The notes under the pieces: model-generated
What the model saw: only the letters and a program-made list of their open reading frames with translations
What the model was told of the DNA's origin: nothing
The model's database searches: none
DNA from: a virus
Lineage: Duplodnaviria; Heunggongvirae; Uroviricota; Caudoviricetes
IMG/VR virus record: IMGVR_UViG_2728369554_000009
Coordinates: 1-40,186 of that record
Strand: one strand, 5' to 3'
Length of the DNA stretch: 40,186 bases
Position numbers and translations under genes: made by a program
Part shown: positions 10,122 to 31,032 of the stretch, piece by piece
Layout: every line of letters starts with the position of its first letter
Position numbering within the stretch: the first letter of the stretch is position 1

Positions 10122-10452
10122 ATCAGCAGCAGAGCGCAAAGCCGCTCAGAGAGCCAGACAAGCTGCATCTGGTGTGCGTAAGCTGGAGATTGTGCTTGAT
10201 GCTCAGGAAATTGAAATGCTTGAGCGGAACTGCGCCGCCCGGCGCCCTGGTCGCGATCCCTATGAAATGGCCGAGTACATCGCGCTGCTGATCCGCCAGG
10301 ATGATGCACGTGTGCGCGGGCGTATAAAATCGATCAGCAGAAAACTTTGCGGTAAGTGCGGCGAGAGAGTTCCCGTTAATTCATGCCCGTGTAATGGTGA
10401 CTCGCAATGCTGGGTGACTAAAGGCTGGCATGAAACGAAATTAATAGTGTGA
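10114..10452 (+). CDS. RHH-like N-terminus plus C-terminal Cys4 zinc-ribbon protein; candidate regulator of late operon
   Basis: 'LEIVLDAQEIEMLER' followed by 'CGKCGERVPVNSCPCNGDSQC'. Immediately upstream of a palindrome, a terminator and the late promoter. Confidence 0.45.
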   Translation: MAKSAAERKAAQRARQAASGVRKLEIVLDAQEIEMLERNCAARRPGRDPYEMAEYIALLIRQDDARVRGRIKSISRKLCGKCGERVPVNSCPCNGDSQCWVTKGWHETKLIV

Positions 10453-10460
10453 CATGTCAC
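10449..10460. promoter_or_regulatory. 12-bp perfect palindrome GTGACATGTCAC (copy 1)
   Basis: Read in the sequence. Overlaps the stop of the zinc-ribbon gene. Confidence 0.5.
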
Positions 10461-10501
10461 GAGTAGATTATGCATGATGAATTTGATGGGTTTTGAATAC
10501 T

Positions 10502-10527
10502 GCCGCCAACTATGGCGGCTTTATTTT
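10502..10527 (+). terminator. intrinsic terminator ahead of late operon
   Basis: GCCGCC-aactat-GGCGGC followed by TTTATTTT. Confidence 0.6.
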
Positions 10528-10538
10528 GCATGGTACTA

Positions 10539-10553
10539 TTACCACAACGGTAA
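10539..10553. promoter_or_regulatory. operator TTACCACAACGGTAA fused to -10 TACTAT upstream of terminase genes
   Basis: Perfect palindrome. Same TACTAT|TACC context as the copy at 32168. Confidence 0.6.
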
Positions 10554-10570
10554 CTATTACCACGGTGGTT

Positions 10571-11167
10571 ATGATGCCTGCTGAACCTAAAACCTATAAA
10601 CGCAAATCAACGCAATTTAAGCCACTAACAGCAATGCAGGAGGCTTATTGCCAGTCATACATCAAAACGCCTGAAAACCAGACTCAGGCAGCGATTAACG
10701 CAGGATTCTCCCCAAATACAGCGGCAGTTAAAGCCAGTGTCATGATGCGCGATGAACGCATTCAAAAACGGATTGCCGAGTTGATGGAGGAGCGCAACAA
10801 ACGAATGCGCGTCAGTGCTGATTACGTTCTCATGCGCCTGGTGGAGATCGACCAGATGGACGTGATCGACATCCTCAACGACGATGGGAGCCTTAAGCCA
10901 ATCCGCGAGTGGCCGAAAATCTGGCGCACTACGCTTAGCGGCTTTGATCTGTCATCGACCATCATGAACATGAACGAGGATTCGATAGAGACAATCCTCA
11001 AAAAAATTAAATGGCCTGACAAGGTGAAGAACCTCGAACTGATTGGTAAGCACGTCGACGTCAAAGCATTCAAAGAACGCCTGGATGTTAATGTGAATGT
11101 GACAATTGCTGATCGCATAGCAGCAGCCAGGAAGCGACTCAAAGAACGTCAGGATGGTAATCAGTGA
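10571..11167 (+). CDS. terminase small subunit
   Basis: 'AYCQSYIKTPENQTQAAINAGFSPNTAAVKASVMMRDERIQKRIAE' resembles the Terminase_2 family. Start at ATGATG after GGTGG. Confidence 0.7.
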   Translation: MMPAEPKTYKRKSTQFKPLTAMQEAYCQSYIKTPENQTQAAINAGFSPNTAAVKASVMMRDERIQKRIAELMEERNKRMRVSADYVLMRLVEIDQMDVIDILNDDGSLKPIREWPKIWRTTLSGFDLSSTIMNMNEDSIETILKKIKWPDKVKNLELIGKHVDVKAFKERLDVNVNVTIADRIAAARKRLKERQDGNQ

Positions 11168-12639
11168 CAGATACAGTGTTATCTCCTGAAGAGCAGTTGA
11201 TCGAGGATATTGCAGGGTTTACTCACGATCCGCTTGGTTATGCCCTCTATGCGTTCCCGTGGGGGGAAGAGGGGACTGAACTGGCACATGCTACTGGCCC
11301 ACGTCAGTGGCAGGCTGATGCGTTCCGAGAGATACGTGATCACCTGCAGAATCCAGAGACGCGCTATCAGCCGCTTATGCTGGCACGCGCTTCTGGTCAC
11401 GGTATTGGTAAATCCGCATTCATCTCAATGCTGATCAACTGGGGCATGTCCACTTGCGAGGATTGTAAGGTCGTGGTGACCGCCAACACCGACAACCAGC
11501 TACGAACGAAGACCTGGCCGGAAATTATCAAGTGGTCGAACCTTGCTATCACGGAAGACTGGTTTACCTGTACCGCTACCGCGATGTACAGCAATGACCC
11601 TGGGCACGACAAGCGGTGGCGTGCTGACGCAATACCCTGGTCTGAGCACAACACTGAGGCGTTCGCCGGACTACACAACGAGCGCAAACGCATCATCGTG
11701 GTGTTTGATGAAGCGTCGAACATTGCGGATCTGGTGTGGGAAGTTGCTGAGGGTGCGCTTACGGACGAAGACACTGAGATTATCTGGGTGGCGTTCGGAA
11801 ACCCGACGCGTAATACCGGACGTTTCCGTGAATGTTTCCGCAAGTATAAACACCGCTGGAAAACTGCGCAGATTGACAGTCGGACGGTGGAAGGTACCAA
11901 CAAACAGCAGTTGCAGAAATGGGTTGATGACTACGGGGAAGACAGCGACTTCGTTAAAATCCGTGTGCGTGGCATATTCCCTGATGCATCTGAATTGCAG
12001 TTTATCCCTACCGGTCTTACTGACGAGGCAATGAAACGGGTGGTAACCGCTGCGCAGGTTGCACATGCTCCGGTGATAATCGGCGTTGACCCGGCATACT
12101 CCGGCGTTGATGACGCTGTGATATACCTGCGGCAGGGGCTACACAGTAAGGTGCTGTGGACTGGCAACAAGACTACCGACGATCTGATTATGGCGAAGCG
12201 TATCGCTGACTTTGAAGACCAGTATCAGGCTGACGCGGTGTTCATCGACTTCGGTTACGGAACCGGTTTGAAGTCAATCGGTGACGGCTGGGGTCGTACA
12301 TGGCAACTTGTTCCGTTCGGTGGCGCGTCTACTGACCCGCAGATGCTTAACAAGCGTGGGGAGATGTTCAACTCATGTAAGACATGGCTGAGGCTGGGCG
12401 GCATGCTGGATGACCAGGAAACTGCAGACGACCTGTCGGCGGCAGAGTACAAAGTTCGCGTGGACGGTAAAATCGTTATCGAACCGAAGGAGGATATCAA
12501 GGAGCGGCTTGGGCGTTCGCCGGGTAAAGGCGATGCGCTACTGCTGACGTTTGCGTTCCCTGTGTCGAAGCGTCTGCGAATTCCCGGTCAGCAGAACCAG
12601 CAAGGCAAGGCCATCACAGATTACGATCCCTATGCTTAA
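11164..12639 (+). CDS. terminase large subunit
   Basis: 491 aa. Walker-like 'ARASGHGIGKS' and 'IIVVFDEAS'; C-terminal nuclease-like region. GTG start overlapping the small-subunit stop. Confidence 0.85.
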   Translation: MTDTVLSPEEQLIEDIAGFTHDPLGYALYAFPWGEEGTELAHATGPRQWQADAFREIRDHLQNPETRYQPLMLARASGHGIGKSAFISMLINWGMSTCEDCKVVVTANTDNQLRTKTWPEIIKWSNLAITEDWFTCTATAMYSNDPGHDKRWRADAIPWSEHNTEAFAGLHNERKRIIVVFDEASNIADLVWEVAEGALTDEDTEIIWVAFGNPTRNTGRFRECFRKYKHRWKTAQIDSRTVEGTNKQQLQKWVDDYGEDSDFVKIRVRGIFPDASELQFIPTGLTDEAMKRVVTAAQVAHAPVIIGVDPAYSGVDDAVIYLRQGLHSKVLWTGNKTTDDLIMAKRIADFEDQYQADAVFIDFGYGTGLKSIGDGWGRTWQLVPFGGASTDPQMLNKRGEMFNSCKTWLRLGGMLDDQETADDLSAAEYKVRVDGKIVIEPKEDIKERLGRSPGKGDALLLTFAFPVSKRLRIPGQQNQQGKAITDYDPYA

Positions 12640-12682
12640 TCCGCTGGTGGGGATAATATCGTTGATATCCTCTGGTGAGGAT

Positions 12683-12715
12683 AAAACAAAGCCAGCTCAT
12701 AGGCTGGCTGTTTGT
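12683..12715. terminator. bidirectional terminator between convergent genes
   Basis: AGCCAGC-tcatag-GCTGGCT. U-run on the minus strand (AAAACAAA on +), weaker GTTTGT on the + strand. Confidence 0.6.
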
Positions 12716-12725
12716 GACATGTCAC
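12714..12725. promoter_or_regulatory. 12-bp palindrome GTGACATGTCAC (copy 2)
   Basis: Read in the sequence. Confidence 0.5.
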
Positions 12726-12729
12726 GGTG

Positions 12730-13062
12730 TTATTTCGGTAGATTGTGTTTGGCATTCGACTCGTCTATCACGTAACGCATTGCAGTTCGACCGAGATTAC
12801 CAGGATCTTCATGCAGACTCACTCGTGCCTTTAGGAGCACACATTCAGCCTTGACATAGTTTGCTGGAATTATTCCTACCTCGGCATTTTTAAATGCCTC
12901 CTTCACCGCCTCACCGTTGTACTGACCGCCAAGCAACTCTGTACATGTCAGGTTGTTATGGATAATTGCAAGGAGATCTTTAATCTCTTCACGCAGGTTT
13001 ACAATCGCCATCGCGGCATTGATAGCTGCGGCATAGCGCTCAGCTGCAGTCTTCTCTTTCAT
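12730..13062 (-). CDS. moron-encoded hypothetical protein (110 aa from MKEKTAAERY)
   Basis: Strong SD AAGGTGA 5 nt before ATG 13062. An intrinsic terminator hairpin abuts the RBS. Function unknown. Confidence 0.5.
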   Translation of the reverse strand: MKEKTAAERYAAAINAAMAIVNLREEIKDLLAIIHNNLTCTELLGGQYNGEAVKEAFKNAEVGIIPANYVKAECVLLKARVSLHEDPGNLGRTAMRYVIDESNAKHNLPK

Positions 13063-13074
13063 GATTTTCACCTT

Positions 13075-13099
13075 AAAAAAATGCCCGGACGAACCGGGC
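13075..13099 (-). terminator. minus-strand intrinsic terminator/attenuator directly upstream of moron RBS
   Basis: GCCCGG-uucgu-CCGGGC followed by 7 U (the + strand A-run is 13075..13081). Confidence 0.6.
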
Positions 13100-13141
13100 G
13101 AATGATCAACGGAGTGCCTTCCTTGGCGGGTGATGCAGGGT

Positions 13142-13357
13142 TTACAGCGCAACGTCATCGGAATGGCGTTCTGCTGTAAAAAGGGCGGTGGTCAGAAGAA
13201 GGAGAACTGCCACCGCCAAAGCTACACGCATTGCCTGGTACTGCCGTATCACGGTCCTAACGTGATTGGGTTGTGGTGGCCGGTGCTGATCTCCGGCTTG
13301 AAATATGCTCAGTGTTAGCTGCCACTCTCTCAAGAGGATATGCGTCATGATTTTCAC
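13142..13357 (-). CDS. possible small membrane-anchored leader protein (71 aa; alternative 29-aa hydrophobic peptide from ATG 13231)
   Basis: C-terminal 'MRVALAVAVLLLLTTALFTAERHSDDVAL' is a TM-like segment. No convincing SD. Confidence 0.25.
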   Translation of the reverse strand: MKIMTHILLREWQLTLSIFQAGDQHRPPQPNHVRTVIRQYQAMRVALAVAVLLLLTTALFTAERHSDDVAL

Positions 13358-13803
13358 TGAGTTTGTTGGGTAACCCTGACTTCCGGCTATTCACGCAGCT
13401 TGTCTTCCAACTCAGGCTTATGCCTTACCCATTCCCCCACGTTCACGGGGTGCGCATCAGCCTGCGCATTCACCACAACGGAAAGAGCACTGACTTCGAG
13501 CAGACCTTGGGCCCAGGAACGACGATCAATCTCAATGCTCTTACCTGTTGCATCCTCGTCTCTTCCGAGGTGTCACACCTGATCGCCGGGATGGTGAATC
13601 CCCGTGCGCGGAATAAAACCGCTCGACTTGCACATTCCGGCTACCTGGTTCGTTTGCCCGAGCAAGGGAGGGTGCCCCTTAAACGTATCCAGACCGCTAT
13701 CGGCGCATGTGCCATACGCCGTACTGCTCAAAATAAAAGCTCACTCCACCTGTTCAATTTAACGACAAGCCAGTCAGGTTAGTAACCGGAATGAACTCTT
13801 TGG

Positions 13804-13818
13804 TTACCTGAAAGGTAA
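13804..13818. promoter_or_regulatory. operator TTACCTGAAAGGTAA upstream of head genes
   Basis: Perfect palindrome. Confidence 0.6.
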
Positions 13819-13908
13819 TAATTTGTGCGTTAAATGTCAACTACCTACGATAAATAAATCATATGTGGTTAAATTGGTAATAATTTAATTGCGTACGGAG
13901 TCATTGAT

Positions 13909-14115
13909 ATGTGCATGGGTAGCTCACCATCAGTGCCTGCAACACCAGAAGTTCAGGCAGCACCACAGGAGCAGGATGCCGCCGTTGTTGATGCCCGCGA
14001 CGAAGAAACTCGTCGCCGTCGCGCTGCTGCTGGTCGTAGTTCTACGCTGCTTACCGGTTCTCAGGGTGACACATCAACCGCTAATACCAGCGGTAAAACG
14101 CTGCTTGGTCAGTAA
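13909..14115 (+). CDS. small hypothetical protein preceding portal
   Basis: 68 aa. SD GGAG 9 nt upstream. A nearly identical initiation region (GGAGTCATTGA) also precedes the portal gene. Confidence 0.4.
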   Translation: MCMGSSPSVPATPEVQAAPQEQDAAVVDARDEETRRRRAAAGRSSTLLTGSQGDTSTANTSGKTLLGQ

Positions 14116-14129
14116 CCGGAGTCATTGAA

Positions 14130-15809
14130 ATGGCGGAAACAACTAAAGAGCGATTGAACAAACAGTTCGCACAACTTGAAAGCGAGCGTCAGTCGTTCGA
14201 GCCGCACTGGCGCGAGTTGAGTGATTACATCAACCCGCGTGGTTCCCGCTTTCTGACTTCTGAGGTCAACCGTAACGATCGACGCAATACACGCATTATT
14301 GATTCGACCGGGACTATGGCGGCGCGCACTCTCGCCAGCGGCATGATGTCAGGCATCACAAGCCCCGCGCGTCCGTGGTTTCGCCTGGCTACGCCAGATC
14401 CTGAAATGATGGATTATGGCCCTGTTAAGTTGTGGCTTGAGGCGGTGCAGAACCGCATGAACGATATGTTCAATAAGTCGAATCTCTATCAGTCGCTGCC
14501 GCAGTTATACGGAAGCCTCGGCACATACAGCACTGGTGCAATGGCAGTGCTGGAGGATGACGAGGACATCATTCGCACAATGCCATTCCCGATAGGCAGT
14601 TACTACCTGGCTAACTCACCTCGTGGCAGTGTGGACACCTGTTTTCGCAAGTTCTCTATGACTGTTCGTCAGCTTGTTCAGGAGTTCGGGCTAAATAACG
14701 TCAGCGAATCCGTAAAAAGCATGTGGGAAAGCGGCACCTACGAGAAGTGGATTGAAGTGATGCATTCGGTTTACCCGAACATTGACCGCGATACATCGAA
14801 GCTGGATAGCAAGAACAAGCCATTCAAATCGGTTTATTACGAGGTTGGTGGCGATAACGACAAGTTGTTGCGTGAGTCCGGATTCGATGAGTTTCCAATT
14901 ATGGCTCCGAGCTGGGAAGTTAACGGCGAAGATGTTTATGGATCATCATGCCCGGGTATGCTGGCGCTTGGACCTGTTAAGGCATTGCAGCTTCTCCAGA
15001 AGCGCAAGTCGCAGTTGATTGATAAAGCCACCAATCCGCCGATGGTTGCTCCGACTTCCCTCAAGAATCAGCGTGCCTCCCTTCTTCCTGGCGACATCAC
15101 GTATATCGATCAGATTACTGGTCAGGATGGTTTCAGGCCTGCTTATCTGGTTAACCCCAGTACAGCAGATTTGGTGGCAGACATTCAGGACACCCGTCAA
15201 ATCATTAACAGCGCCTACTTTGTCGATCTGTTCATGATGTTGCAGAACATCAATACCCGCTCGATGCCTGTTGAAGCGGTGATCGAAATGAAAGAAGAAA
15301 AACTTCTGATGTTGGGGCCGGTTCTGGAGCGTCTGAACGACGAATGTCTTAATCCTCTCATTGACCGCGCTTTCTCGATGATGGTGCGTAAAAACATGCT
15401 GCCGCCACCGCCTGACGCGATGGAAGGTATGCCCCTGAAGGTCGAATACATTTCCGTCATGGCTCAGGCGCAGAAGTCTATCGGCCTGTCCAGTCTGGCG
15501 TCCACGGTTAACTTCATTGGTCAACTTGCGCAAGCGAAACCAGAAGCTCTCGACAAACTCAACGTTGATCAGGCGATCGATGCATTCGCTGATATGTCCG
15601 GAGTGTCTCCAACCGTCATTGTTCCGCAGGAACAGGTTGAGCAGGCTCGCCAGCAACGGGCACAGCAACAACAGCAGCAACAAATGATGGCGATGGGGAT
15701 GGCGGCGGCACAGGGTGCCAAGACGCTAAGCGAAGCTAAAACTTCGGATCCGAGTGTTTTGTCAGCTATGGCGAATGCAGTTAGTGGTCAGGGTGGGCAA
15801 TCACAATGA
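14130..15809 (+). CDS. portal (T7 gp8-like head-to-tail connector)
   Basis: 559 aa. N-terminal 'LNKQFAQLESERQSFEPHWRELSDYINPR' and overall podovirus connector organisation. Confidence 0.8.
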   Translation: MAETTKERLNKQFAQLESERQSFEPHWRELSDYINPRGSRFLTSEVNRNDRRNTRIIDSTGTMAARTLASGMMSGITSPARPWFRLATPDPEMMDYGPVKLWLEAVQNRMNDMFNKSNLYQSLPQLYGSLGTYSTGAMAVLEDDEDIIRTMPFPIGSYYLANSPRGSVDTCFRKFSMTVRQLVQEFGLNNVSESVKSMWESGTYEKWIEVMHSVYPNIDRDTSKLDSKNKPFKSVYYEVGGDNDKLLRESGFDEFPIMAPSWEVNGEDVYGSSCPGMLALGPVKALQLLQKRKSQLIDKATNPPMVAPTSLKNQRASLLPGDITYIDQITGQDGFRPAYLVNPSTADLVADIQDTRQIINSAYFVDLFMMLQNINTRSMPVEAVIEMKEEKLLMLGPVLERLNDECLNPLIDRAFSMMVRKNMLPPPPDAMEGMPLKVEYISVMAQAQKSIGLSSLASTVNFIGQLAQAKPEALDKLNVDQAIDAFADMSGVSPTVIVPQEQVEQARQQRAQQQQQQQMMAMGMAAAQGAKTLSEAKTSDPSVLSAMANAVSGQGGQSQ

Positions 15810-16102
15810 CAGATTACGAAGACGATCAACTGAAAGAAGAAAACGCCCGTAAGCAACGTGACATGGCACAGCGTGAAATTGATGACATTTGCTTTGTCAT
15901 GAGCAGTGAACAGGGGCGTCGCGTTGTCTGGTCGGTGCTGGAGAAAGGCCGTGTGTTTTCCGCTATCTCACCGATGGACGCTATGGCAATGGCATTTAAT
16001 GAGGGGCAACGCAATCTGGCGCTGGAACTGTTTCAGCGCGTTATGGCGCATTGCCCTGAACAGTATTTGAAGATGGCCAAAGAGGCCAGTGAACAGGAGT
16101 GA
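15806..16102 (+). CDS. hypothetical head-assembly protein
   Basis: 98 aa. ATGA-coupled to the portal. Confidence 0.5.
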   Translation: MTDYEDDQLKEENARKQRDMAQREIDDICFVMSSEQGRRVVWSVLEKGRVFSAISPMDAMAMAFNEGQRNLALELFQRVMAHCPEQYLKMAKEASEQE

Positions 16103-16104
16103 TC

Positions 16105-16800
16105 ATGAATTTATTTGAGCGTTTGCTGTATCGCCGTCTTTGCAATGAGCAACCAGTCGATGGTGGAGCAGCTCCGGCTGCGTCAGAACCGTCAGCGCCT
16201 GCAGGTGATAACCCTGCTCCAGTTGGTGATCCATCACAACAGGAAGGTGATAAGCCACAACCTGTTGCTGATGGCGATAAACCTGATGATGAAAAAAAAT
16301 CTGAAAACGATAAGCAGGGTGAAAAAAAGGACGGCGATAAACCAGAGGGTGCGCCGGAGAAGTACGAATTTCATGCTGCCGAAGGCGTAGAGCTGGATAC
16401 AGAAGCGTTGAAGGAATTCGAGCCGGTGGCGCGAGAACTAAACCTGACCAACGAGCAAGCGCAAAAGCTGGTTGATGCTTATCCGAAGATTCTGGCAGGT
16501 GTGCAGCAGCGCCAGGCAGAAGCCTGGCAGAAAACAACCGAGCAGTGGGCTGCTGATGTAAAAGCTGACAAAGAAATTGGTGGCGACAAGTTGATTTCTA
16601 ACCTTAGCGCCGCACAGCGTGCGCTTGACCAGTTCGGGACACCCGAGCTCAAAGAATATCTGAACACCACCGGGCTGGGTAATCACCCTGATCTGGTCAA
16701 AACGTTCGTGAAAATCGGAAAGGCGATGTCTGAAGATGGCATGGTCACCGGTGGTAATGAAGGCCAGCGTAGTGCGGCCGAAGTGCTCTATGGCAAATAA
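16105..16800 (+). CDS. scaffolding-like protein (acidic, Pro/Asp/Glu/Lys-rich N-terminus, helical C-terminus)
   Basis: Composition and position between portal and capsid. SD AGGAG. Confidence 0.5.
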   Translation: MNLFERLLYRRLCNEQPVDGGAAPAASEPSAPAGDNPAPVGDPSQQEGDKPQPVADGDKPDDEKKSENDKQGEKKDGDKPEGAPEKYEFHAAEGVELDTEALKEFEPVARELNLTNEQAQKLVDAYPKILAGVQQRQAEAWQKTTEQWAADVKADKEIGGDKLISNLSAAQRALDQFGTPELKEYLNTTGLGNHPDLVKTFVKIGKAMSEDGMVTGGNEGQRSAAEVLYGK

Positions 16801-16814
16801 GAGAGGAAATGACA

Positions 16815-17801
16815 ATGGCTGTTAAAGGCTTAACTGCGCTAACGCTGGCTGACTGGGGTAAGCGCGTCGATCCAAACGGGAAAGTCGATAAGATTATCGA
16901 GCTTCTCAGTCAAACCAACCCAATCCTTCAGGATATGCCTTTTGTTGAAGGAAACCTTCCTACCGGACACCGAACCACCATTCGTTCTGGTTTGCCTTCC
17001 GCTACCTGGCGTTTGCTGAACTATGGCGTACAACCGAGCAAATCAACAACGGTGCAGGTCACTGATTCCATTGGCATGCTGGAAACCTATGCTGAAGTCG
17101 ATAAGTCTCTGGCTGATCTGAACGGTAATACTGCCGAATTCCGCCTGTCTGAAGACCGAGCATTTATTGAAGCGATGAATCAGGCGATGGCGCAGACGCT
17201 GTTTTACGGTGATTCCAGCGTTAACCCTCAGCAGTTTATGGGACTGTCCTCCCGCTATTCCAGCCTGTCTGCGGGTAATGCTCAGAACATCATTGATGCT
17301 GGTGGCACGGGTACAGATAACACTTCAATCTGGTTAGTGGTGTGGGGCGAAAACACCGTGCATGGCATCTTCCCGAAAGGGAAGAAGGCTGGCATCCAGA
17401 TGGAAGATAAAGGCCAGGTGACACTGGAAGATGCTAATGGCGGCAAGTACGAAGGTTATCGTACCCATTATAAGTGGGACAACGGGCTGACATTGCGTGA
17501 CTGGCGCTATGTTGTTCGCATTGCAAACATCGATGTCAGCAATCTTGACGATCCTTCTACTGCTGCGAATATCGCAAAACTGATGATTCGTGCCCTTCAT
17601 CGAATCCCAAATCGTGGGATGGGACGTCCTATTTTCTACATGAACAGAACCATTAACGAAGTGCTTGACCTGCAATCTCTGGAGAAGAGTTCTCTGGCGA
17701 TCAGCGTGAAAGAGACAGAAGGCGAATGGTGGACAGAACTTCGTGGTGTGCCGATTCGCGAAACTGACGCACTTCTGGAAACAGAAGCCCGCGTGGTGTA
17801 A
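16815..17801 (+). CDS. major capsid protein (HK97 fold-like)
   Basis: About 330 aa, directly before a decoration-like gene. Start chosen 9 nt after GAGAGGAAA. Confidence 0.75.
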   Translation: MAVKGLTALTLADWGKRVDPNGKVDKIIELLSQTNPILQDMPFVEGNLPTGHRTTIRSGLPSATWRLLNYGVQPSKSTTVQVTDSIGMLETYAEVDKSLADLNGNTAEFRLSEDRAFIEAMNQAMAQTLFYGDSSVNPQQFMGLSSRYSSLSAGNAQNIIDAGGTGTDNTSIWLVVWGENTVHGIFPKGKKAGIQMEDKGQVTLEDANGGKYEGYRTHYKWDNGLTLRDWRYVVRIANIDVSNLDDPSTAANIAKLMIRALHRIPNRGMGRPIFYMNRTINEVLDLQSLEKSSLAISVKETEGEWWTELRGVPIRETDALLETEARVV

Positions 17802-17816
17802 CGCCTGTTATTAACC

Positions 17817-17836: not shown

Positions 17837-17852
17837 CTAATGGAGAAAGAAG

Positions 17853-18290: not shown

Positions 18291-18300
18291 GGTGATATCG

Positions 18301-18674: not shown

Positions 18675-18686
18675 GCAGGAGTGTAT

Positions 18687-19010: not shown

Positions 19011-19615
19011 TGGCCTCTGTAGTAGAGATCTGCAATCGTGCGCTGTCCAATATTGGCAACAGCCGCAGTATTAACAGCCTGACGGAAGCCAGCAAGGAAG
19101 CGGGGGAATGTTCGCTGCACTTTGAGGCCTGCCGTGATGCTGTGCTTTCTGATTTTGACTGGAACTTTGCTACCAAACGCGTGGCGCTTGCAGATACGAG
19201 CAATCCACCGCCTGACTGGGAATATGCGTATCAGTACCCGTCCGATTGTCTGCGCATTACTGAAATTATGCTTCCTGGTGTACGCAATCCAACAGCAGCA
19301 ATGCGCGTTCAGTACGAAGTTGGTGCAGACACCAACGGAACAGGAAAGTTGATCTACACAGACCAGCCGCAGGCATGGCTCAAGTATGTCTCTCGCGTTT
19401 CAGATGTGAACATGTTTGATGCCATTTTTATGGAGGCGTTGGCCTGGCGTCTTGCGGCAGCTATTAACATGGCGTTGACTGGGAATGCAGACCTCGGTAC
19501 GTTTGCCCTCAATATGTACAATCGCGTGATTCTTAGTGCTGGCTCGCATAGCCAGAATGAATCACAGGAACCACTGCCACCGGTTGACGAGTTTACCATT
19601 GCGAGGTTGTCCTGA
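19010..19615 (+). CDS. tail tubular protein A (T7 gp11-like)
   Basis: 'VEICNRALSNIGNSRSINSL' and 'EACRDAVLSDFDWNF' resemble the gp11 N-terminus. Confidence 0.6.
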   Translation: MASVVEICNRALSNIGNSRSINSLTEASKEAGECSLHFEACRDAVLSDFDWNFATKRVALADTSNPPPDWEYAYQYPSDCLRITEIMLPGVRNPTAAMRVQYEVGADTNGTGKLIYTDQPQAWLKYVSRVSDVNMFDAIFMEALAWRLAAAINMALTGNADLGTFALNMYNRVILSAGSHSQNESQEPLPPVDEFTIARLS

Positions 19616-23125: not shown

Positions 23126-25833
23126 TGCCTGTTGTTCCTACTACATCCGGACGCCAGGTGCAAAGTCGTGGTGTGCAAACCGGTGGTTTTCAAACCTTCG
23201 ATGTTCCTCAGGCAGGTCAGGTGCTGGCGAATGTCGCAGATCAGTATGCGGTGGCATATGGTGAAGCCAGGCAGAAAGCGAATGTTGCATTGTCTCAGGA
23301 TGCCATCCTTCAGCTTAATCAGCGCAGCAATGAACGTCTTTATAACCCTCAAACCGGTTTTTATGCACAACAAGGCAAAAATGCGATTGGTAAGGGGCAA
23401 GAGTACATATCTGGATTTGATCAGGATGTGGAAGAAATAGCTGCTTCATTGACTGATGAAGCAGCAAGAAATATGTTTTTGCAACAAGCCAGAACACAGA
23501 AAATTCAGTTCAGTACTGGAGTTCTCAGACATGAGATAGGGCAGACAAATGCCTATGAAGATGAGCAATATCAGGCAACGAGAAAATTATGGATACAAAA
23601 TGAAGCGGATGCCTGGAATGACCCGCAAACTGCCACTTTAGCCAGAAATTCCAGAATGGTAGCCATTGCCAGATATGGAGCAGCCAGGGGATGGTCACAA
23701 GAACGCATTCTGGAAGAAATAGAAAGTGATGATCGCAGTGCCACAGAAATGCGGGCGAAGAATTATGCCGCTGCTAATCCGGAAGGATGGTTAAATGGTC
23801 AGTTTCAGAAAAATGATTCTGGAGGCATGGACATGCGTGCCATACGCCTTGTTGAATCAGGTGATCGTCATTTTAATCCTGATGGTAGTATTCTTGAAGG
23901 ACCGAAAACATCTTCTGGAGAGAGGGCCCAGGGGAAATACCAGTTAATGCCGGGCACAGGGAAAGAACTGGCGGCCAAACGTGGCGTTGAATACAACCCT
24001 ACGGACGAACAACAGCATGAAATGCTCGCCAGTGACTATGTAAATCAACTGTATGGTAAGTACGGTTCCGAAATATTGACCGGAGCAGCATATAACTGGG
24101 GGATGGGTAACGTGGATAAACTGATCGCCAAAGTCGGTGATCCACGTAAAGGTGAAATATCAGAAGAAGAATTTATCCGAAATCTTCCATCAGAAACACA
24201 AGGGTGGCTTTCCCGATATAGAAAAAATAAAACTGGAATGGATCCGCTGACTATTTATCAAATAGATAACCTTGCTAATAGTCAGATAGAAAAGCAAAGG
24301 AAGTTAATATTAGAACAGCTTGAGCCAGCTATTAATAACACCATGGCCCAGCTATATAACGGTGAGGTTCCAGATTATATACCGGCTCAGGAGACCATCA
24401 TCAGGGGGTATGGAAAAAACGCAGATAAAATAATCAATCAACTGGATATAGCGATTGATAACGCGAGAATATTCCAGACAATTCAGTATTTGCCTCCTTC
24501 TCAGCAGCAAGAAGAAATGCAGAAAGTGAAGCCTGAGGTTAACGATCCTCACTATGCGTTAAAACTCGATGCTTACGGAAAATTGTCTGCATTGCTTCAG
24601 AGATCAAATGAAGCAATTCAGGCGCAACGGGATTCACGCAGATTTAATGAGGCGCTGACAATAGGTGAAAAATTAGACCCAAGCAACAAGTCAATGCAGA
24701 AAGCTGCTGATTACACAGAAATGGCGCAGAACTTTCGTATTAATGATGCCTCCACTCATGATGGGGTTGTTCGGCTTGTGGCTCAGACTGGCATAATGCC
24801 TTCGCAGGTCATCACGCAGCTTTCAGCAGTATCCCGATCCAGCAATCAGGAAGTGGTTAAAAATGCGGCGGAACTGTTTAGTCGGTTATATGAAACAGAC
24901 AATGCATCTATTGGAAATATGCCGAAGGATATGCAGGGTTTTTATCTGACTGTTAAGCAACTAACTGATGCAGGGATGTCTTCAGATGCTGCTATTGTGG
25001 AAGCGCAGAGTAAGACATACAACCAGACAGATGCACTAAGGGCGCAGCTCTCATCTGTTCAGAGTACAAGAGAATACAAAAAAGAGCGTGACAGCGCAGC
25101 CAATTCTGCTGTCAGTAATATGACTCACTGGCTTCGCTGGGATCCGTCTGCGGATGACCAGACACCGGAAGCAGCGCTCTTTCGCAATGACTATCAGATG
25201 CTGTATGACGTTAACTATCGCCTTGCTGGTGGTAACGCTGACGTAGCGAAGCAAATGACCAACCAGCAGATAGCCCGCACTTGGAGTATCAGCGAGGTCA
25301 ACGGGGAAGCACAGTTTATGAAATATGCACCGGAGGCGCTTTATCAATATGGGCCGTCAGGCTGGATTGCAGCGCAATGGAAGGCTGAAAAAGAAAAAAT
25401 CATGTATGGCGATGACTTACATAAACCGGCTCCTTCATTTAACCGACCTTCAACTGAGGCTGGTGCATTGGGACTGAATAAGCCACGCTCACTGGTTGGA
25501 GGTGAGTTGATTCTCGTTCCTGACTTATCAACTCCGAGAGATAAGCTTTATTCAGTTGTGATCAGAACAAAAGATAAAGATGGTATTACGAGGGATGATT
25601 TATTTTATGACAAGCATGGAAGACAGATGCGCTGGGGGCCATCACTAGAAGATTGGGAACCTTATAAGAAAATGCAGCAGGAACGGGAGCAGCACGAGCA
25701 GGAAGAAATTATGCGTGGACAGGCTATACGAAACTTCAAAGACAAGCATCGCGCTCTGGATGAGCAGTATCAGCGCCTGCATAACGAACGTATGGACAAA
25801 TTTAAAGATTACTTTTCGTGGGGATCTAAATAA
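23125..25833 (+). CDS. internal core protein with lytic transglycosylase domain
   Basis: 902 aa. 'ERAQGKYQLMPGTGKEL..EMLASDYVNQLY..AAYNWGMGNV' is an SLT-like catalytic region. SD AGGAGG. Confidence 0.75.
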   Translation: MPVVPTTSGRQVQSRGVQTGGFQTFDVPQAGQVLANVADQYAVAYGEARQKANVALSQDAILQLNQRSNERLYNPQTGFYAQQGKNAIGKGQEYISGFDQDVEEIAASLTDEAARNMFLQQARTQKIQFSTGVLRHEIGQTNAYEDEQYQATRKLWIQNEADAWNDPQTATLARNSRMVAIARYGAARGWSQERILEEIESDDRSATEMRAKNYAAANPEGWLNGQFQKNDSGGMDMRAIRLVESGDRHFNPDGSILEGPKTSSGERAQGKYQLMPGTGKELAAKRGVEYNPTDEQQHEMLASDYVNQLYGKYGSEILTGAAYNWGMGNVDKLIAKVGDPRKGEISEEEFIRNLPSETQGWLSRYRKNKTGMDPLTIYQIDNLANSQIEKQRKLILEQLEPAINNTMAQLYNGEVPDYIPAQETIIRGYGKNADKIINQLDIAIDNARIFQTIQYLPPSQQQEEMQKVKPEVNDPHYALKLDAYGKLSALLQRSNEAIQAQRDSRRFNEALTIGEKLDPSNKSMQKAADYTEMAQNFRINDASTHDGVVRLVAQTGIMPSQVITQLSAVSRSSNQEVVKNAAELFSRLYETDNASIGNMPKDMQGFYLTVKQLTDAGMSSDAAIVEAQSKTYNQTDALRAQLSSVQSTREYKKERDSAANSAVSNMTHWLRWDPSADDQTPEAALFRNDYQMLYDVNYRLAGGNADVAKQMTNQQIARTWSISEVNGEAQFMKYAPEALYQYGPSGWIAAQWKAEKEKIMYGDDLHKPAPSFNRPSTEAGALGLNKPRSLVGGELILVPDLSTPRDKLYSVVIRTKDKDGITRDDLFYDKHGRQMRWGPSLEDWEPYKKMQQEREQHEQEEIMRGQAIRNFKDKHRALDEQYQRLHNERMDKFKDYFSWGSK

Positions 25834-28800
25834 TGCCGTTCTATCCTGTATCTGAATCAAACAATAACGGATTTATTTCTGCTGGTCTCGCCATTCCTGA
25901 ACCTGATGAACAGAGTTTTGATGTGCATCCGCCAGAAGGTAAGAACCCTGAACCTCGTCCCAAAGAGCCTTCATTGCTTGCCGCAGCAATACGACAGAAC
26001 AATATTCTGGCTGGTTTTTTCCGTCCTGCCAGACAGTTTGAACCGGTCGAAGGTTATAACCCATATGCTGATAAAAATGAGTTGCACGGTTATGAATACT
26101 GGGGGGCGAAATTTGCAGATTCCCGATCGCCAGAGGAAACGGCGTGGATTAAGCAGCAGATAGATGATGAAAATGAAGACAGACGTTTATTGTCTGATGC
26201 TGGCGTAGTTGGAACTCTTGCCAGTATTGCTGCAGGAATGGATCCGGTTACCGTTGCGTCAATGTTTATCCCCGGTGCTCAAGGAGGGGCACTGGCGCGT
26301 ATTGGCTCACAGATTGCGATTGGTGCTGCCGGTACAGCATTAAGCGAGGTTGTGCTGAATAATCAGCAAATAACACGCTCATGGGGTGAAAGTGCCGCTC
26401 ACGTTGCAGCGGGTGCGATGATGAGCGGCGTGTTTGCCAGTGCTGGTGTTGCGCTTTCGCCATCCGTCCGGGCTGCAGCCACGCGTGAGGTTGCTGATGC
26501 TCTTGATAATATGAGCATTACATCAGCGACTGACAGGGCTGCCGCTTCGCTTTCTGATGGTGGTAGTGTTGGTGCTATGAAAATTGATACAGCGACTCTG
26601 GATGATTTAACCCCTGTTTCCGGTGGGTGGGTTGGAAAGGCTGCATGGAAAGCAGGGAGCTATCTTACTCCTTTGACAAGGTTAATGGAGTCTCCGTCCA
26701 AGACAGTGCGAAAAACAACGCTGGAGTTAGCCGAAAATAATTTCACCCTTAAAGGAAATGAAAGGGGGATTGAAACACCGGTAGCTGTAGAAACCCGTAC
26801 ACGTGGATGGCAGCGTGAAGAAGCTGCTGTTGTTGTCGGAAATAAACAGGCATACGCAAAGTATAAAGCTGATGGTGGTGACATGAGTTTTGATTCATTT
26901 CGTCAGCAGGTTGGGAATGCTATGCGAAGCGGTGATGTGCATGCTAATCCTGTTGTTCAGGAAACGGCGCAGGCGATGCGAACTGTATTAAATCGGGTGA
27001 AAGTTGAAATGCAAAAGCTTGGTTTATTGCCGCCAGATGAAGAACTGAAAGCATTAGGCCAGGCAAGCTATTTCCCACGCATATATAAAGTTGGAAAAAT
27101 AATCAGTGAACGCGATAAATTTCGACGTATTTTGGTTGACTGGTGGTCGAGAGGAAATAAAACACTGGATCCTGAGGATGCTGAAATTGCAGCGGATATC
27201 GTAATTAATAAAATTACTGGTGCTAAGGTTCCACAGGATTTTGTCAGCGTATTTTCTGTAAAAGCCGCAGGTAGTACGAAAGAAAGAACATTAAATGTTC
27301 CTGATAGTCTTATCGGTGATTATCTTGAAAGTGATGTGAATTACGTGCTGCAACGTCATATCCGTGAAGCGGCAGCAGAAATTGAGTTGATGAGAACATT
27401 TGGCAAACGAACTATGACTGAGCGTCTGCAATTAATTGAGGACGAATATGACAGTCTGTTACGGGAAGTGCCTGAAAAAATAAAGGCGAAATATGACGAA
27501 AGTGTGGCAAATCTGAAAGCACGTTATGAGAGCAATGGTGAAGTTGTTCCTCAGGGTAAACTCGATTCATTAATGCGAAAGTACGAAAAGGAATTACGGA
27601 AAGAACAGTCCAGACTTTCAAAATCAAGAGCAAATGATCTCAGAGACATAACAGCATTACGCGATCGTCTTGTTGGTACATATGGGATGCCTGATGATCC
27701 GTCTTCGTTTTTTGTTCGTGCTGGCGCTTTTCTGCGGGATGTGAACTTCACGACCAAACTCGGTGGAATGACAGTATCAGCTATTCCAGATCTGGCCAGA
27801 GGGGTTATGGTTAATGGTTTCCGTAACACCATGAAAGGCTATGCTTCTCAGATATCCCAATCACCGGCATTTAAGGCCAGCAAAGAAGATATGTTGAAGA
27901 TGGGGATTGGATTGGAAGCTGTACTACATTCACGTTCTCGTGCAATTGGTGATCTTGTTGACAGTTCTTCCAGGACAACAGCAGTCGAAGCAGGAATGGA
28001 GCGAATTACTGATGCCTTCGGCAAGCTGACACTCATGGATCGATTTAATGACATAAACAAATCCATGAACGGAATGCTCACGTCAGACGGTATTTTGTCC
28101 GGTGCGTTTTCTGCACGTCGCATGGCAAAACTCGGTATCAACGACAATATGGCTGCGCGTATTCGCAGTGAGTTCGAGAAACATGGTGAGGTAATTGATG
28201 GATGGCACATTGGTAACTTTGATAAATGGGACGATCAGTACGTTGCCGGAGTATTCCAGTCAGCGGTTCTGAAAGACGTTAATAACACTATCATCACCCC
28301 CGGTATTGGTGACACACCTTTATGGGCGAGTACTCCAATGGGGCGAACGATATTTCAGTTTAAATCATTCACAACGGCTTCATACAACCGTGCGCTACTT
28401 GGTGGGTTACAGGAAGGAACTGCGCAATTTTATTATGGCACTGCATTTCAGATTGCTCTTGGCTCACTGGTCTATGCGCTTAAAGAAGCATCGAAAGGGA
28501 AAAATGTTGACTGGTCACCAGAGAAGCTGGTGCTTGAGGGTATAGATAGATCCGGTATTCTTGGGCCATTGATGGAATATAACAACATGGCTGAAAAGGC
28601 GACTGGTGGTGCTGTTGGGCTGGGGGCTTTATTTGGCACTGGCACACAGTCCAGGTATGCCAGTCGTGGATTCGTAGGATCTCTATTCGGACCGTCATTT
28701 GGTCTTGCGGATAGCATCATTGATGTGACCTCAGGAGTGTTGAATGGTGATGCCGGTGATCGTATTGTGCATAATGTCCGAACCCTGATACCCGGCAATA

Positions 28801-28853
28801 ACCTGTTCTGGATTGCGCCACTAATAAACCAAGTGGATCCGGTGATGCGTTAA
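25833..28853 (+). CDS. large internal core / DNA-ejection protein (gp16-like)
   Basis: 1006 aa, coupled (TAAATAATG). Confidence 0.65.
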   Translation: MPFYPVSESNNNGFISAGLAIPEPDEQSFDVHPPEGKNPEPRPKEPSLLAAAIRQNNILAGFFRPARQFEPVEGYNPYADKNELHGYEYWGAKFADSRSPEETAWIKQQIDDENEDRRLLSDAGVVGTLASIAAGMDPVTVASMFIPGAQGGALARIGSQIAIGAAGTALSEVVLNNQQITRSWGESAAHVAAGAMMSGVFASAGVALSPSVRAAATREVADALDNMSITSATDRAAASLSDGGSVGAMKIDTATLDDLTPVSGGWVGKAAWKAGSYLTPLTRLMESPSKTVRKTTLELAENNFTLKGNERGIETPVAVETRTRGWQREEAAVVVGNKQAYAKYKADGGDMSFDSFRQQVGNAMRSGDVHANPVVQETAQAMRTVLNRVKVEMQKLGLLPPDEELKALGQASYFPRIYKVGKIISERDKFRRILVDWWSRGNKTLDPEDAEIAADIVINKITGAKVPQDFVSVFSVKAAGSTKERTLNVPDSLIGDYLESDVNYVLQRHIREAAAEIELMRTFGKRTMTERLQLIEDEYDSLLREVPEKIKAKYDESVANLKARYESNGEVVPQGKLDSLMRKYEKELRKEQSRLSKSRANDLRDITALRDRLVGTYGMPDDPSSFFVRAGAFLRDVNFTTKLGGMTVSAIPDLARGVMVNGFRNTMKGYASQISQSPAFKASKEDMLKMGIGLEAVLHSRSRAIGDLVDSSSRTTAVEAGMERITDAFGKLTLMDRFNDINKSMNGMLTSDGILSGAFSARRMAKLGINDNMAARIRSEFEKHGEVIDGWHIGNFDKWDDQYVAGVFQSAVLKDVNNTIITPGIGDTPLWASTPMGRTIFQFKSFTTASYNRALLGGLQEGTAQFYYGTAFQIALGSLVYALKEASKGKNVDWSPEKLVLEGIDRSGILGPLMEYNNMAEKATGGAVGLGALFGTGTQSRYASRGFVGSLFGPSFGLADSIIDVTSGVLNGDAGDRIVHNVRTLIPGNNLFWIAPLINQVDPVMR

Positions 28854-28874
28854 TCAATATTTATTGGAGTTCTT

Positions 28875-29402
28875 TCAATGGCTGTTTATGGCTTCTAAAG
28901 AAGCTTCTGCACTTATCGGCAAAGCAATAGTATCCTTGTTAGATGTGCTATTGCTTTCCAGAACTATGGAAATCCAATCCTCTTGGTTTTCATTAATTGT
29001 GCTGACAGCCATGATAGCATTCAAATCATTTTTATATATTTCTGATCGAATAAGACCTTTCCTGAATAATTTAGTTAAGTTTTCAGCTATCGACATCGCA
29101 CGAATGCTAACTTTACTAAGCTCAATTGCGTCACTACCTGCGACTTTGGCGTGTTGAGAAAGAGCCATCAAAGCTATATGTGAAAATGTTTCTTCTTTTG
29201 AAAAACCGTTACTTAAAGACATGAGTGATACACCAGCTCCGTATGGGGTGAGTTTATATCCTGATACATTCAGTGCATGCTCTACAAAGGTAAGATCATC
29301 AGTTGTAGAAACATGCATATCGTTACTTTTTTGTTTTTTTGCAATAAATAAAAAAACAAAATTAATAATCACGATGCCGACGATGATTAAGAAAACTTCC
29401 AT
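28875..29402 (-). CDS. single-pass membrane protein, superinfection-exclusion/abortive-infection candidate
   Basis: 175 aa with N-terminal TM 'VFLIIVGIVIINFVFLFIA'. AT-rich. Own operator-bearing promoter and AGGA SD. Confidence 0.5.
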   Translation of the reverse strand: MEVFLIIVGIVIINFVFLFIAKKQKSNDMHVSTTDDLTFVEHALNVSGYKLTPYGAGVSLMSLSNGFSKEETFSHIALMALSQHAKVAGSDAIELSKVSIRAMSIAENLTKLFRKGLIRSEIYKNDLNAIMAVSTINENQEDWISIVLESNSTSNKDTIALPISAEASLEAINSH

Positions 29403-29422
29403 TGCTTTTCCTCACAATAACA

Positions 29423-29437
29423 TTACCTTAAAGGTAA
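29423..29437. promoter_or_regulatory. operator TTACCTTAAAGGTAA
   Basis: Perfect palindrome upstream of the membrane-protein gene. Confidence 0.6.
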
Positions 29438-29462
29438 TATTTTGTGCTAATGTGATCAAGTG

Positions 29463-29861
29463 TTAAGTGTATACCTCCTGCTGTTCAGTCGTGATTTTAC
29501 CCGGCAACACCTTTTTAGCTTTGCGCGGGTTAACCACATGGCCTTTAGTCCAGTACTCGTAGAGCACATCATCACACTCTTCCTGATACTGGATTACCTT
29601 ATCGCGGATTTCAGGGCGGACTTTGTTTGGACTGATGCTGTTCAACCAAGCTGCCAATTTTCGTAAAGCCATACAAATCATGGCTTGCACCCCTCCGGCA
29701 GAAGGTATGGTGATTTCCACCATACCCTTCGAGAAGCGTTGAGAAATCTTCTTATGTTGAGATTTCCAGTCTAGACCCATTCCCTCAACGATAGGTTTCA
29801 TTGGGGTGTACGGTTCGCCGTTGTGATTGACAACATAAAGTTCTACGCCGTGGAATGGCAC
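29463..29861 (-). CDS. Rha/KilA-N (ORF6N)-like antirepressor-family protein
   Basis: 132 aa from GTG. 'GVELYVVNHNGEPYTPMKPIVEGMGLDWKSQ..AMICMALRKLAAWLN'. Weak RBS. Confidence 0.45.
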   Translation of the reverse strand: MPFHGVELYVVNHNGEPYTPMKPIVEGMGLDWKSQHKKISQRFSKGMVEITIPSAGGVQAMICMALRKLAAWLNSISPNKVRPEIRDKVIQYQEECDDVLYEYWTKGHVVNPRKAKKVLPGKITTEQQEVYT

Positions 29862-30008
29862 GTTGATAGTAGTGACAAGTTTGAAACATCGCTGGTTGTA
29901 AGCCAGCAGATGCTCGTTATTTTACATCGCGGTACAATTTCTCGCTGGTGGCTCTTTTATACACCTTAACCAAATATGGTTGATTTTGATATTTATCTTC
30001 GTCTATTA

Positions 30009-30023
30009 TTACCTTTTCGGTAA
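30009..30023. promoter_or_regulatory. operator TTACCTTTTCGGTAA fused to -10 TATTAT (module A promoter)
   Basis: TTGATT-N18-TATTAT|TACC. Confidence 0.65.
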
Positions 30024-30290
30024 ATTTACATCGCACTCCTCTTGTGCCATAGTAATCGGGCACTGGCAAAATCCAGTGCCGGGATTGGTCTCCCGGATTA
30101 CTACAGAGGCACATATGCCGCATAAGCGGTTTTTTTATGTGTAAAGCGCACCTATTCTATGGTGGGCTGTGTGGGGGCACCGAAAGGTGCGCCGGGTTCC
30201 TTTGTAGCCGGTAAGACCAACTCTGCACAGTTCACCACCATCTGATTGGTCTCAGCGGTGGTGATTAACCTAACTACAAAGGTGATCGCC
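30024..30290 (+). ncRNA. conserved structured 5' leader of antirepressor A (hairpins plus internal terminator 30118..30136)
   Basis: First 95 nt are identical to the inverted copy at 33197..33103. Hairpins 30059..30080 and CCGGGA-ttggtc-TCCCGG 30079..30096. CCGC-ataa-GCGG followed by 7 T. GNRA hairpin GCACC-gaaa-GGTGC with a compensatory variant in copy B. 8-bp stem TCACCACC/GGTGGTGA. Confidence 0.5.
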
Positions 30291-30983
30291 ATGAATACCA
30301 AACCTTCCATCTTTTCCTTTGAGTCATCCTGCCAGATCCGTATGTTCATGATTGACGGAGAACCTTGGTTTGTCACCAAAGATGTGTGCAATGCTTTGAA
30401 TATTGATGTTACACAAGCGAGAAAACTTGATAAAAAAGGCTGGAACAAAAAGGGGCTGTATTCAATACAGACCCCTGGTGGAATACAAGAACTATCCATC
30501 GTTTCAGAATCAGGTCTCTACATCCTTATTCTGCGTTGCAAAGAGGCAATGACTGAGGGAACGAGAGCATTCAGATTTCTTGAATGGGTTACAGGTGAGG
30601 TTCTTCCTCAGATCCGCCGCACCGGAAGTTACATTAAAAACTCGCTCCCGCAGGAAGAACGCATAAAGATGGTTGCCGACCAGGTAGCCAACGCCACGGC
30701 GTCAGCAGTAATGCAGGCGATGAAGATAGAGAACAAAACCTACAGTGCCCCGCTGAAGCCCGGCTACCGCAGCCTGATTCATTCTCCGTCTGGTGTTCTC
30801 GGCCTGACGGAGAACTCACTGCTGATGAATCTGCTGAACCAGTTACAGGAAGACGGGCACGATGTATCGGGCGCGGCGGCGGAGCTGACCACCATGTTCT
30901 GCTACATCGTCGGTGTGAGCAAATGCCTGCGTGATATCCAGACGCACGCGGAATACATCAACGACAAGGCAGGGTTCTTCTGA
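30291..30983 (+). CDS. antirepressor A: Bro-N domain plus shared antirepressor C-terminal domain
   Basis: 'MIDGEPWFVTKDVCNALNI..ELSIVSESGLYILILRC' is Bro-N. The C-terminal 85 aa is nearly identical to the C-terminus of gene 32255..32911. SD AAGGTGA. Confidence 0.7.
   Translation: MNTKPSIFSFESSCQIRMFMIDGEPWFVTKDVCNALNIDVTQARKLDKKGWNKKGLYSIQTPGGIQELSIVSESGLYILILRCKEAMTEGTRAFRFLEWVTGEVLPQIRRTGSYIKNSLPQEERIKMVADQVANATASAVMQAMKIENKTYSAPLKPGYRSLIHSPSGVLGLTENSLLMNLLNQLQEDGHDVSGAAAELTTMFCYIVGVSKCLRDIQTHAEYINDKAGFF
30742..30983. repeat. inverted repeat arm 1, about 97% identical to rc(32255..32496)
   Basis: Direct comparison of both strands. Encodes the shared antirepressor C-domain. Confidence 0.8.
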
Positions 30984-31020
30984 CAGAACGGCGGCACAGG
31001 GACGTGCAAAACGAAACTAG

Positions 31021-31032
31021 CGTGACATGTCA
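31021..31032. promoter_or_regulatory. 12-bp palindrome GTGACATGTCAC (copy 3)
   Basis: Read in the sequence. Confidence 0.5.

Follow-up and report, generated by a model that had tools for sequence, protein, structure and literature searches.

Introduction

A close described counterpart of the element reported here is matS, GTGAC[AG]N[TC]GTCAC with the E. coli consensus GTGACATTGTCAC, together with MatP, a ribbon-helix-helix (RHH) protein of which a basic helix and a β-strand are inserted into the major groove. Prophages have been reported to lack true matS sites (PMC3603311). The DNA analyzed in this work, which comprises 40,186 nucleotides (nt; positions 1 to 40,186 of the IMG/VR virus record IMGVR_UViG_2728369554_000009) and is referred to as the window, is an epsilon15/phiV10-like (Uetakevirus) prophage and contains three copies of the 12-base-pair (bp) palindrome GTGACATGTCAC. 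This palindrome corresponds to the matS consensus less its central base, and one of its copies lies on the stop codon of a small gene of the PHROG 536 family. From the linkage of motif and gene, and from a structural model of the gene product, we conclude with a probability of roughly 0.6 that the general motif GTGAC-N2-GTCAC is the cognate site (operator) of a dimeric RHH/zinc-ribbon protein encoded by the phages themselves, the epsilon15 gp49/N15 gp46 family.

The palindrome is linked to the gene of a candidate binding protein

GTGACATGTCAC was found in the window at 10449-10460 (copy 1), 12714-12725 (copy 2) and 31022-31033 (copy 3). Shuffling of the window gave an expectation of 0.01 copies, and none of 100 shuffled sequences reached three. 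A first-pass annotation of the sequence had already listed three copies with the starts 10449 and 12714; its coordinates for the third (31021 to 31032) were one base too low. It had also pointed out that copy 1 overlaps the end of a zinc-ribbon gene, and indeed the TGA stop codon (10450-10452) of the open reading frame 10114-10452 on the + strand lies inside the palindrome. This frame encodes 112 amino acids and is a homologue of epsilon15 gp49 and N15 gp46. The product belongs to PHROG 536, which is labeled as transcriptional regulator, and neither Pfam nor NCBIfam contains a family for it. PHROG 536 is a small family with 157 clusters at 50% identity, which is represented in 153 INPHARED records; 85 of these are Vibrio phages, and the others include Uetakeviruses, N15/phiKO2-type telomere phages and P2-like Yersinia and Aeromonas phages.

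In loci fetched through distant homologues, the palindrome recurs in the general form GTGAC-N2-GTCAC with a strict 2-bp spacer. The 163 homologue loci (3.02 Mb) harbor 278 exact sites compared with 2.9 expected ones; a site is located at offset -1 to the stop codon of the family gene in 137 of these loci, and 153 have a site with at most one mismatch between -40 and +450 of the stop codon. Ten complete genomes encoding the family contain 28 copies of the motif versus 7 of the next commonest 5-2-5 palindrome, and variants with spacers of 0, 1, 3 and 4 bp occur 0, 0, 1 and 0 times, respectively. Lambda, the sole negative control, has no site at a chance expectation of about 0.04 per genome. The linkage of symmetric site and regulator gene is seen in podo-, sipho- and myovirus backgrounds, and the motif accompanies the family in every case in N15-type, P2-like, Vibrio and Aeromonas phages. 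The pair is thus found in many temperate phages of Vibrio, Aeromonas and enteric bacteria.

The usual form on the stop codon is xxG-TGA-CATGTCAC. In one clade the site follows the stop codon immediately (tag-CT-GTGACGCGTCAC), and in another it is encoded as 'VTGH' in the C-terminal tail, 30 nt ahead of the stop codon. In an Aeromonas-type clade the sites are imperfect and come in pairs, GTGTCCGGTCAC-N6-GTGACCGGACAC, 19-435 nt downstream. N15 contains three sites (GTGACCAGTCAC/GTGACTGGTCAC), at 28550, 33237 and 39269; one of the three is found on the stop codon of gene 46, another in the region 24 nt upstream of the -35 element of the isrK/C4 antirepressor operon, and another in the interior of repA. 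All three positions are kept in Klebsiella phage 020009, one of them again on the gene 46 stop codon. Three sites are present in Vibrio phage K233 and one in a Yersinia phage, and the P2-like Aeromonas A051 has one exact site as well as three with one half-site mismatch, two of which are GTGTCCGGTCAC.

A scan of IMG/VR that started from the motif instead of the protein used GTGACATGTCACGG, which samples some flanks only and yields short stretches. It returned 119 of them; 45 contain a homologue, and several more are recognizable copy-2 or copy-3 contexts of Uetakeviruses. IMG/VR is redundant, and the P0265 search of this database for distant family members gave no match. The 12-mer also falls out of the coding of a DnaJ-like zinc finger (C-V-T-C-H-G-K-G) in six loci, which is likely to be a source of chance occurrences unrelated to the regulator. 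Within an early-left gene of 107 amino acids (PHROG 2479), the palindrome is intact in five loci (L091 at 1312, L087 at 3093, L088 at 1985, L094 at 1273 and L136 at 3566), where it is read as '(C/G)DMS' and the neighboring codons vary; this pattern points to a constraint at the DNA level inside the coding sequence (CDS).

Another set of motif-first matches, an 11-locus group with N15-like tail modules (L254, site at 5577, and ten further loci; IMGVR_UViG_651053056_000001 and 2511231178_000003 are examples of the group), carries the palindrome as the TGA stop codon of a gpM-like minor tail gene, and a terminator follows ahead of a gpL-like gene. The terminator is present and the palindrome absent in phi80, the closest relative of this group, and no near match to the group was found among complete genomes in the phage and E. 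coli collections. Aeromonas A051 was considered as a member and rejected, being P2-like instead.

Predicted architecture of the protein and co-variation with the center of the motif

According to the structural model, the 10114-10452 product would consist of a basic N-terminal helix, an RHH domain and a C-terminal Cys zinc ribbon, and the modeled protein has the features of the RHH fold. It did not qualify as a member of the TraR/DksA C4 family (CxxC-x17-CxxC, Pfam zf-dskA_traR). In the extended segment of the domain, which reads RKLEIVL in the window, the hydrophobic positions 24, 26 and 28 are conserved, and the alternate positions 23, 25 and 27 vary together with the center of the motif. 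The residues K-E-V occur with the center AT in the Uetakevirus and lambdoid-type clades, and R-E-V or R-E-A with CG in L167 and in the Aeromonas-type clade. E-R-K is accompanied by GC or AC, namely in the L120 clade as well as in L158 and Vibrio phage K233; R-D-P or R-D-V is accompanied by CA, both in L087, which is otherwise near the AT clade, and in N15 and phage 020009. The CG, GC/AC and CA pairings are thus each found in two distant clades. As far as the model can be trusted, this co-variation is the pattern expected if the β-ribbon reads the central base pairs.

Since residues and center vary together and motif and gene are linked, we assign the site to the PHROG 536 protein. The conserved basic N-terminal helix would contact the GTGAC half-sites, and the β-ribbon would read the center. 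The first-pass annotation had proposed a dimeric factor, possibly the zinc-ribbon protein encoded at copy 1. This protein is the best candidate, and the proposal gains support from the co-occurrence, from the stop-codon position of the site in most loci, from the predicted RHH fold and from the residue co-variation. Taken together, sequence and model indicate that the sites are real, non-random and conserved, and they support the suggested binder.

Several points weigh against this assignment. Most loci were collected via the protein, which makes the co-occurrence partly a matter of ascertainment, and the stretches of the 11-locus motif-first group (up to 15 kb) are too short to tell whether a homologue is encoded. 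The co-variation is derived from a handful of independent events, and the DNA-facing residues of the strand were deduced from the distribution of hydrophobic residues in a monomer model. Since one RHH ribbon normally covers some 4-6 bp, the contact of the N-terminal helix with the outer GTG/CAC is an assumption. Copy 2 is lost or mismatched in some close relatives. Finally, literature searches, which covered the 12-mer, terminators and palindromes of epsilon15 and phiV10, and gene 46 of N15, revealed no description of the motif or of the function of the family, so that the regulator-site pair is apparently undescribed so far.

Conservation of the three copies in Uetakevirus relatives

The palindrome is kept at equivalent positions in relatives from E. 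coli, Salmonella, Enterobacter and Klebsiella. All three positions are occupied in five complete genomes with Salmonella, E. coli or Enterobacter hosts (epsilon15, phiV10, SPN1S, Tyrion and BUCT554), and the Klebsiella phage Kp4865-1 has the palindrome at the first two positions and a third copy in a different context. With regard to the individual copies, copy 1 is kept in epsilon15, SPN1S, Tyrion and Kp4865-1 and differs by one mismatch in phiV10 and BUCT554; copy 2 is identical in seven of seven Uetakevirus genomes, with a mosaic right flank, and copy 3 is identical in six of six genomes, at the end of a structural or moron unit. In anchored comparisons across four host genera the mean majority frequency is 0.98-1.00 for the 12-mer versus 0.60-0.74 for the non-coding flanks, which diverge or are replaced between relatives. 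Among 80 close IMG/VR relatives, copy 1 is nearly universal and about two thirds contain copy 2, the remainder having a one-mismatch form or none. The records of epsilon15 and phiV10 do not annotate the motif. The sites annotated as 'repressor' in the epsilon15 record are separate TTACC-type sites, in agreement with the earlier statement that the palindrome is distinct from the TTACC operator.

When one or two mismatches were allowed, the sole additional match in the window was GTGACATGGCAC at 15858-15869, within the CDS 15806-16102. Relatives keep either GTGACATGGCAC or GTGACATGGCGC at this position, a pattern that resembles conservation of the encoded protein more than that of a functional site. 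The GTGACATGGCAC variant was also observed in Yersinia phage vB_YenM_42.18, 34 nt upstream of the exact copy.

The three sites of the window are located at the ends of transcription units

In Uetakeviruses the three sites follow the early-right operon, the terS-terL unit where it meets a convergent moron, and the structural operon. At all three copies of the window, transcription passes first the stop codon, then the palindrome and then the terminator (copy 2 being read on the minus strand); the distance to the intrinsic terminator is 0-41 nt, consistent with the earlier remark that each copy stands beside one. Copy 1 is followed 41 nt further 3' by a + strand terminator at 10502-10527 (end also given as 10519), which precedes the terS promoter/operator region. 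Copy 2 lies between a terminator hairpin (12690-12709, at a distance of 4 nt) and the stop codon of a convergent moron-like gene of PHROG 27507 (12730-13158, minus strand), which ends 4 nt before it. This hairpin between terL (+) and the moron-like gene has a strong T-run on the minus strand and a weak one on the + strand; it was scanned as the minus-strand terminator of gene 12730-13158, and the phiV10 record lists it as the + strand terminator of terL. Copy 3 directly abuts a + strand terminator at 31034-31058 (end also given as 31051), at the point where the + strand Ant module, with the Bro-N/Ant antirepressor gene (30246-30983, +) as its final gene, and a minus-strand module converge.

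This placement extends in part beyond the window. A terminator-like hairpin is located within 15 nt of 31% of 144 sites with distinct contexts versus 3% of random positions, and in a 26-locus subset 24% of the sites are near a terminator versus 8% of ordinary gene ends. At 47% of the distinct sites an open frame of 80 codons or more ends in the TGA of the motif. Other sites are found near a promoter (N15), before a start codon (Vibrio phage K233, L158 and N15 gene 47) or inside genes (N15 repA and PHROG 2479). The constant feature is that the gene of the regulator, which lacks a dedicated promoter, carries a site at its extreme 3' end.

Two further roles of the palindrome were considered and rejected. 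No promoter-like sequence was found at copies 2 and 3, and copy 1 has a weak match, GTGACA-18-CATGAT; a use of the palindrome as a -35 element (GTGACA-17/18-(TAAATT or CATGAT)) seems plausible for epsilon15, Tyrion and the window and is not conserved in other clades. As an intrinsic terminator the palindrome itself would form a weak hairpin of 4-5 bp (-2.9 kcal/mol), and the terminators are separate neighboring hairpins.

Some further features were noted next to the copies. The terS start of the RefSeq record of phiV10 is equivalent to position 10493 of the window (TTG), in which case the terminator hairpin would fall inside the reading frame; the comparison with epsilon15 makes a start at the ATG near 10577 more likely. 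In Kp4865-1 (about 12709-12760) and in many IMG/VR relatives, the promoter-like sequence TTGACT-15-TATACT follows copy 1 directly and is overlapped by a perfect LexA-box pattern, CTGT-N8-ACAG, which suggests SOS control. Two modules of isrK and C4 antisense RNA of the P1/N15 immI type (30060-30242 on the + strand and 33146-32961 on the minus strand; Rfam bit scores 61-79) precede the antirepressor-type operons that converge on copy 3, and an isrK/C4 pair is likewise present in N15, downstream of one GTGAC site. The minus-strand module ending at copy 3 includes a frame of 170 amino acids (31303-31812, minus strand) with a weak match to the YafO toxin family of Pfam (E = 7e-4, below the curated cut-off).

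Possible function of the bound site

With regard to function, we tentatively favor a role of the bound dimer as a roadblock to transcription, or as an insulator, where units end; it would also act back on its own gene, since a dimer bound at the 3' end of this promoterless gene would keep RNA polymerase from reaching either the stop codon or the next unit. The dimer might reinforce weak or one-directional terminators, such as the hairpins at copies 2 and 3, and might reduce the transcription that runs on from the early operon into the packaging genes. At the end of its own gene the dimer would halt RNA polymerase ahead of the stop codon, so that truncated, stop-less transcripts would arise and the regulator would limit its own synthesis. 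The evidence makes such a role possible rather than likely, and three sites do not fit it well: the N15 site about 24 nt upstream of the -35 element of the antirepressor-operon promoter, the Vibrio site, which precedes the terS ATG by 20 nt, and copy 1 of some relatives, which lies in a 12-nt gap within an operon. A more far-reaching version, according to which the gp49/gp46 family would be a MatP-like roadblock that marks unit ends and autoregulates at its own stop codon, with short-spacer, matS-like sites that could mimic or evade MatP/MukBEF, is still more speculative.

Loaded at the site, the same binder could also act as a late switch comparable to Q, either by activating a nearby promoter or by driving read-through of the neighboring terminators into terS-terL and the structural genes. 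We consider this unlikely on balance; it is nevertheless the serious rival of the roadblock. The early-right operon ends with the regulator gene, the packaging genes come directly next, and PHROG labels the product as transcriptional regulator; in L158 and Vibrio phage K233 a T-run precedes one site and the terS start follows it, and L088-type phages have a site with a terminator within the late operon, ahead of the major capsid gene. In addition, the family profile shows a weak resemblance to the zinc finger of TraR/DksA, an RNA polymerase-binding domain (E = 0.06; hhalign probability 33%).

A different binder, namely a host factor and chiefly MatP, through which the phage would tie into chromosome organization (MatP/MukBEF/ZapB), appears improbable despite the shared half-sites. 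The spacer of the phage motif is 2 bp and not 3 bp, as reflected by the 28 versus 1 copies in the ten genomes, and the window contains no 13-bp matS (GTGACNNNGTCAC) even at one mismatch, in line with the reported avoidance of true matS by prophages (PMC3603311). The center of the motif differs among E. coli phages (AT in Uetakeviruses, CA in N15) and follows the strand residues of the phage protein. A comparison of the family profile with E. coli MatP by hhalign gave a match to the generic helix B of RHH proteins alone (probability 0.2%) and detected no sequence relationship. The sites are borne by many kinds of phages, including the plasmid-prophage N15. One true 13-bp sequence of the matS type, GTGACACCGTCAC, was observed in Vibrio phage K233 at 19491-19503, beside the three 12-bp sites.

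It is similarly doubtful that the palindrome is mainly a recombination junction, i.e. a linker for the exchange of modules and morons without a regulatory role. The homology among relatives does break exactly at the palindrome, on the variable side: more than eight unrelated sequences follow copy 1 and more than ten follow copy 2, the window and phiV10 diverge directly left of copy 3, and in L088 a gene (15538-16110) is situated between two copies where L117 has a single one. However, no dedicated recombinase accompanies the motif, and the intergenic gaps of just 0-10 nt force junctions onto the site. A passive linker would moreover not explain the strict spacer, the conserved half-sites, the co-variation or the upkeep inside coding sequences ('DMS' of PHROG 2479, 'VTGH'). 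The junction behavior therefore probably follows from the presence of a conserved functional site in minimal gaps, an arrangement which may also favor exchange.

An action as RNA, be it as a processing site for RNase III or another enzyme, as the first-pass annotation had considered, or as a hairpin in the 3' untranslated region before the terminator, has very little in its favor: three units have the element in their transcribed 3' ends, beside terminator hairpins, and RNase III sites are annotated elsewhere in the epsilon15 genome, but the isolated fold is no more stable than expected (z = -0.18), variation is confined to the central 2 nt with a non-palindromic CA tolerated, the flanking C and G (positions 5 and 8), which would belong to the loop and are unable to pair, are fixed, and no Rfam family matches at the sites.

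Implications and comparison with known systems

If the pairing is true, a function can be named for a 'hypothetical protein' or 'transcriptional regulator' of Uetakeviruses, N15-type telomere phages, P2-like phages and many Vibrio prophages, together with a precise 12-bp site and a simple residue-to-base code. That one site covers the stop codon of the regulator and others stand beside terminators where operons end points to a control at unit ends and not at promoters, which is little explored in phages. Besides, the site marks mosaic junctions and is therefore useful for the annotation of module boundaries. The identity of the half-sites with matS at one spacer base fewer raises the question of cross-talk with, or deliberate avoidance of, the host protein that organizes Ter, and common ancestry, convergence or an avoidance of MatP are alternative explanations for the short spacer.

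Among described sites of similar appearance, that of CRP is TGTGA-N6-TCACA; it was rejected because the equivalent spacing in the phages is 4 bp and not 6 (TGTGA-CATG-TCACA, in some copies only). SlmA binds the 12-bp palindrome GTGAGTACTCAC with conserved GT-AG...CT-AC; judged by eye, the motif agrees with it at 8 of 12 positions but differs at positions 5 and 8 (C/G), where the bases of SlmA sites are conserved, and it does not qualify as such a site. N15 additionally contains four GCGACC-N2-GGTCGC palindromes (33481, 35932, 41126 and 45563), which we presume to be the dispersed centromere repeats of SopB (IR1-IR4). Like the GTGAC sites, these are a few identical palindromes dispersed in a phage genome near regulatory regions, but palindrome and positions are different, so that the GTGAC sites do not represent the SopB centromeres.

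The arrangement resembles that of lambda Q insofar as the regulator gene is the last of the early-right operon, ahead of a terminator and the late/packaging genes, and a DNA site is located near the terminator. In contrast, the Q binding element lies in a promoter and needs a promoter-proximal pause, whereas no such promoter is conserved at the phage motif; the family also has no similarity to Q in sequence or fold, and N15 carries a Q-like gene 40 in addition to gene 46. An analogy in terms of position is offered by lacI: Abo and colleagues are said to have found in 2000 that LacI, bound to an operator in the 3' end of lacI, acts as a roadblock and gives rise to stop-less lacI mRNA and to tagging by transfer-messenger RNA. 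An operator at the 3' end of the regulator's own gene has the geometry for a roadblock-type autoregulation, and the likeness is one of position only.

MatP and matS share several features with the phage pair. The half-sites GTGAC/GTCAC are identical, the sites are few and dispersed instead of being clustered at one promoter, and the basic helix directly before the β-strand is a layout that MatP would have in common with the modeled phage protein. They differ in that matS comprises 13 bp with a 3-bp spacer compared with 12 bp and a 2-bp spacer in the phages, that MatP has a four-helix bundle and a coiled coil compared with the C-terminal zinc ribbon of the phage family, and that the phage sites are located in genomes which otherwise avoid matS. 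As to the RHH repressor-operator pairs (Arc and Mnt of P22, CopG, AmrZ and TacA), their operators lie across the promoter under control, 5' of a gene, which is not the case at the copies of the window; in the phages the best-kept site lies on the regulator's own stop codon, the others stand beside terminators, and the protein adds a zinc ribbon. Judging from sequence and model, the pair is therefore probably an RHH regulator and its operator, with an unusual protein architecture and an unusual placement of the sites.

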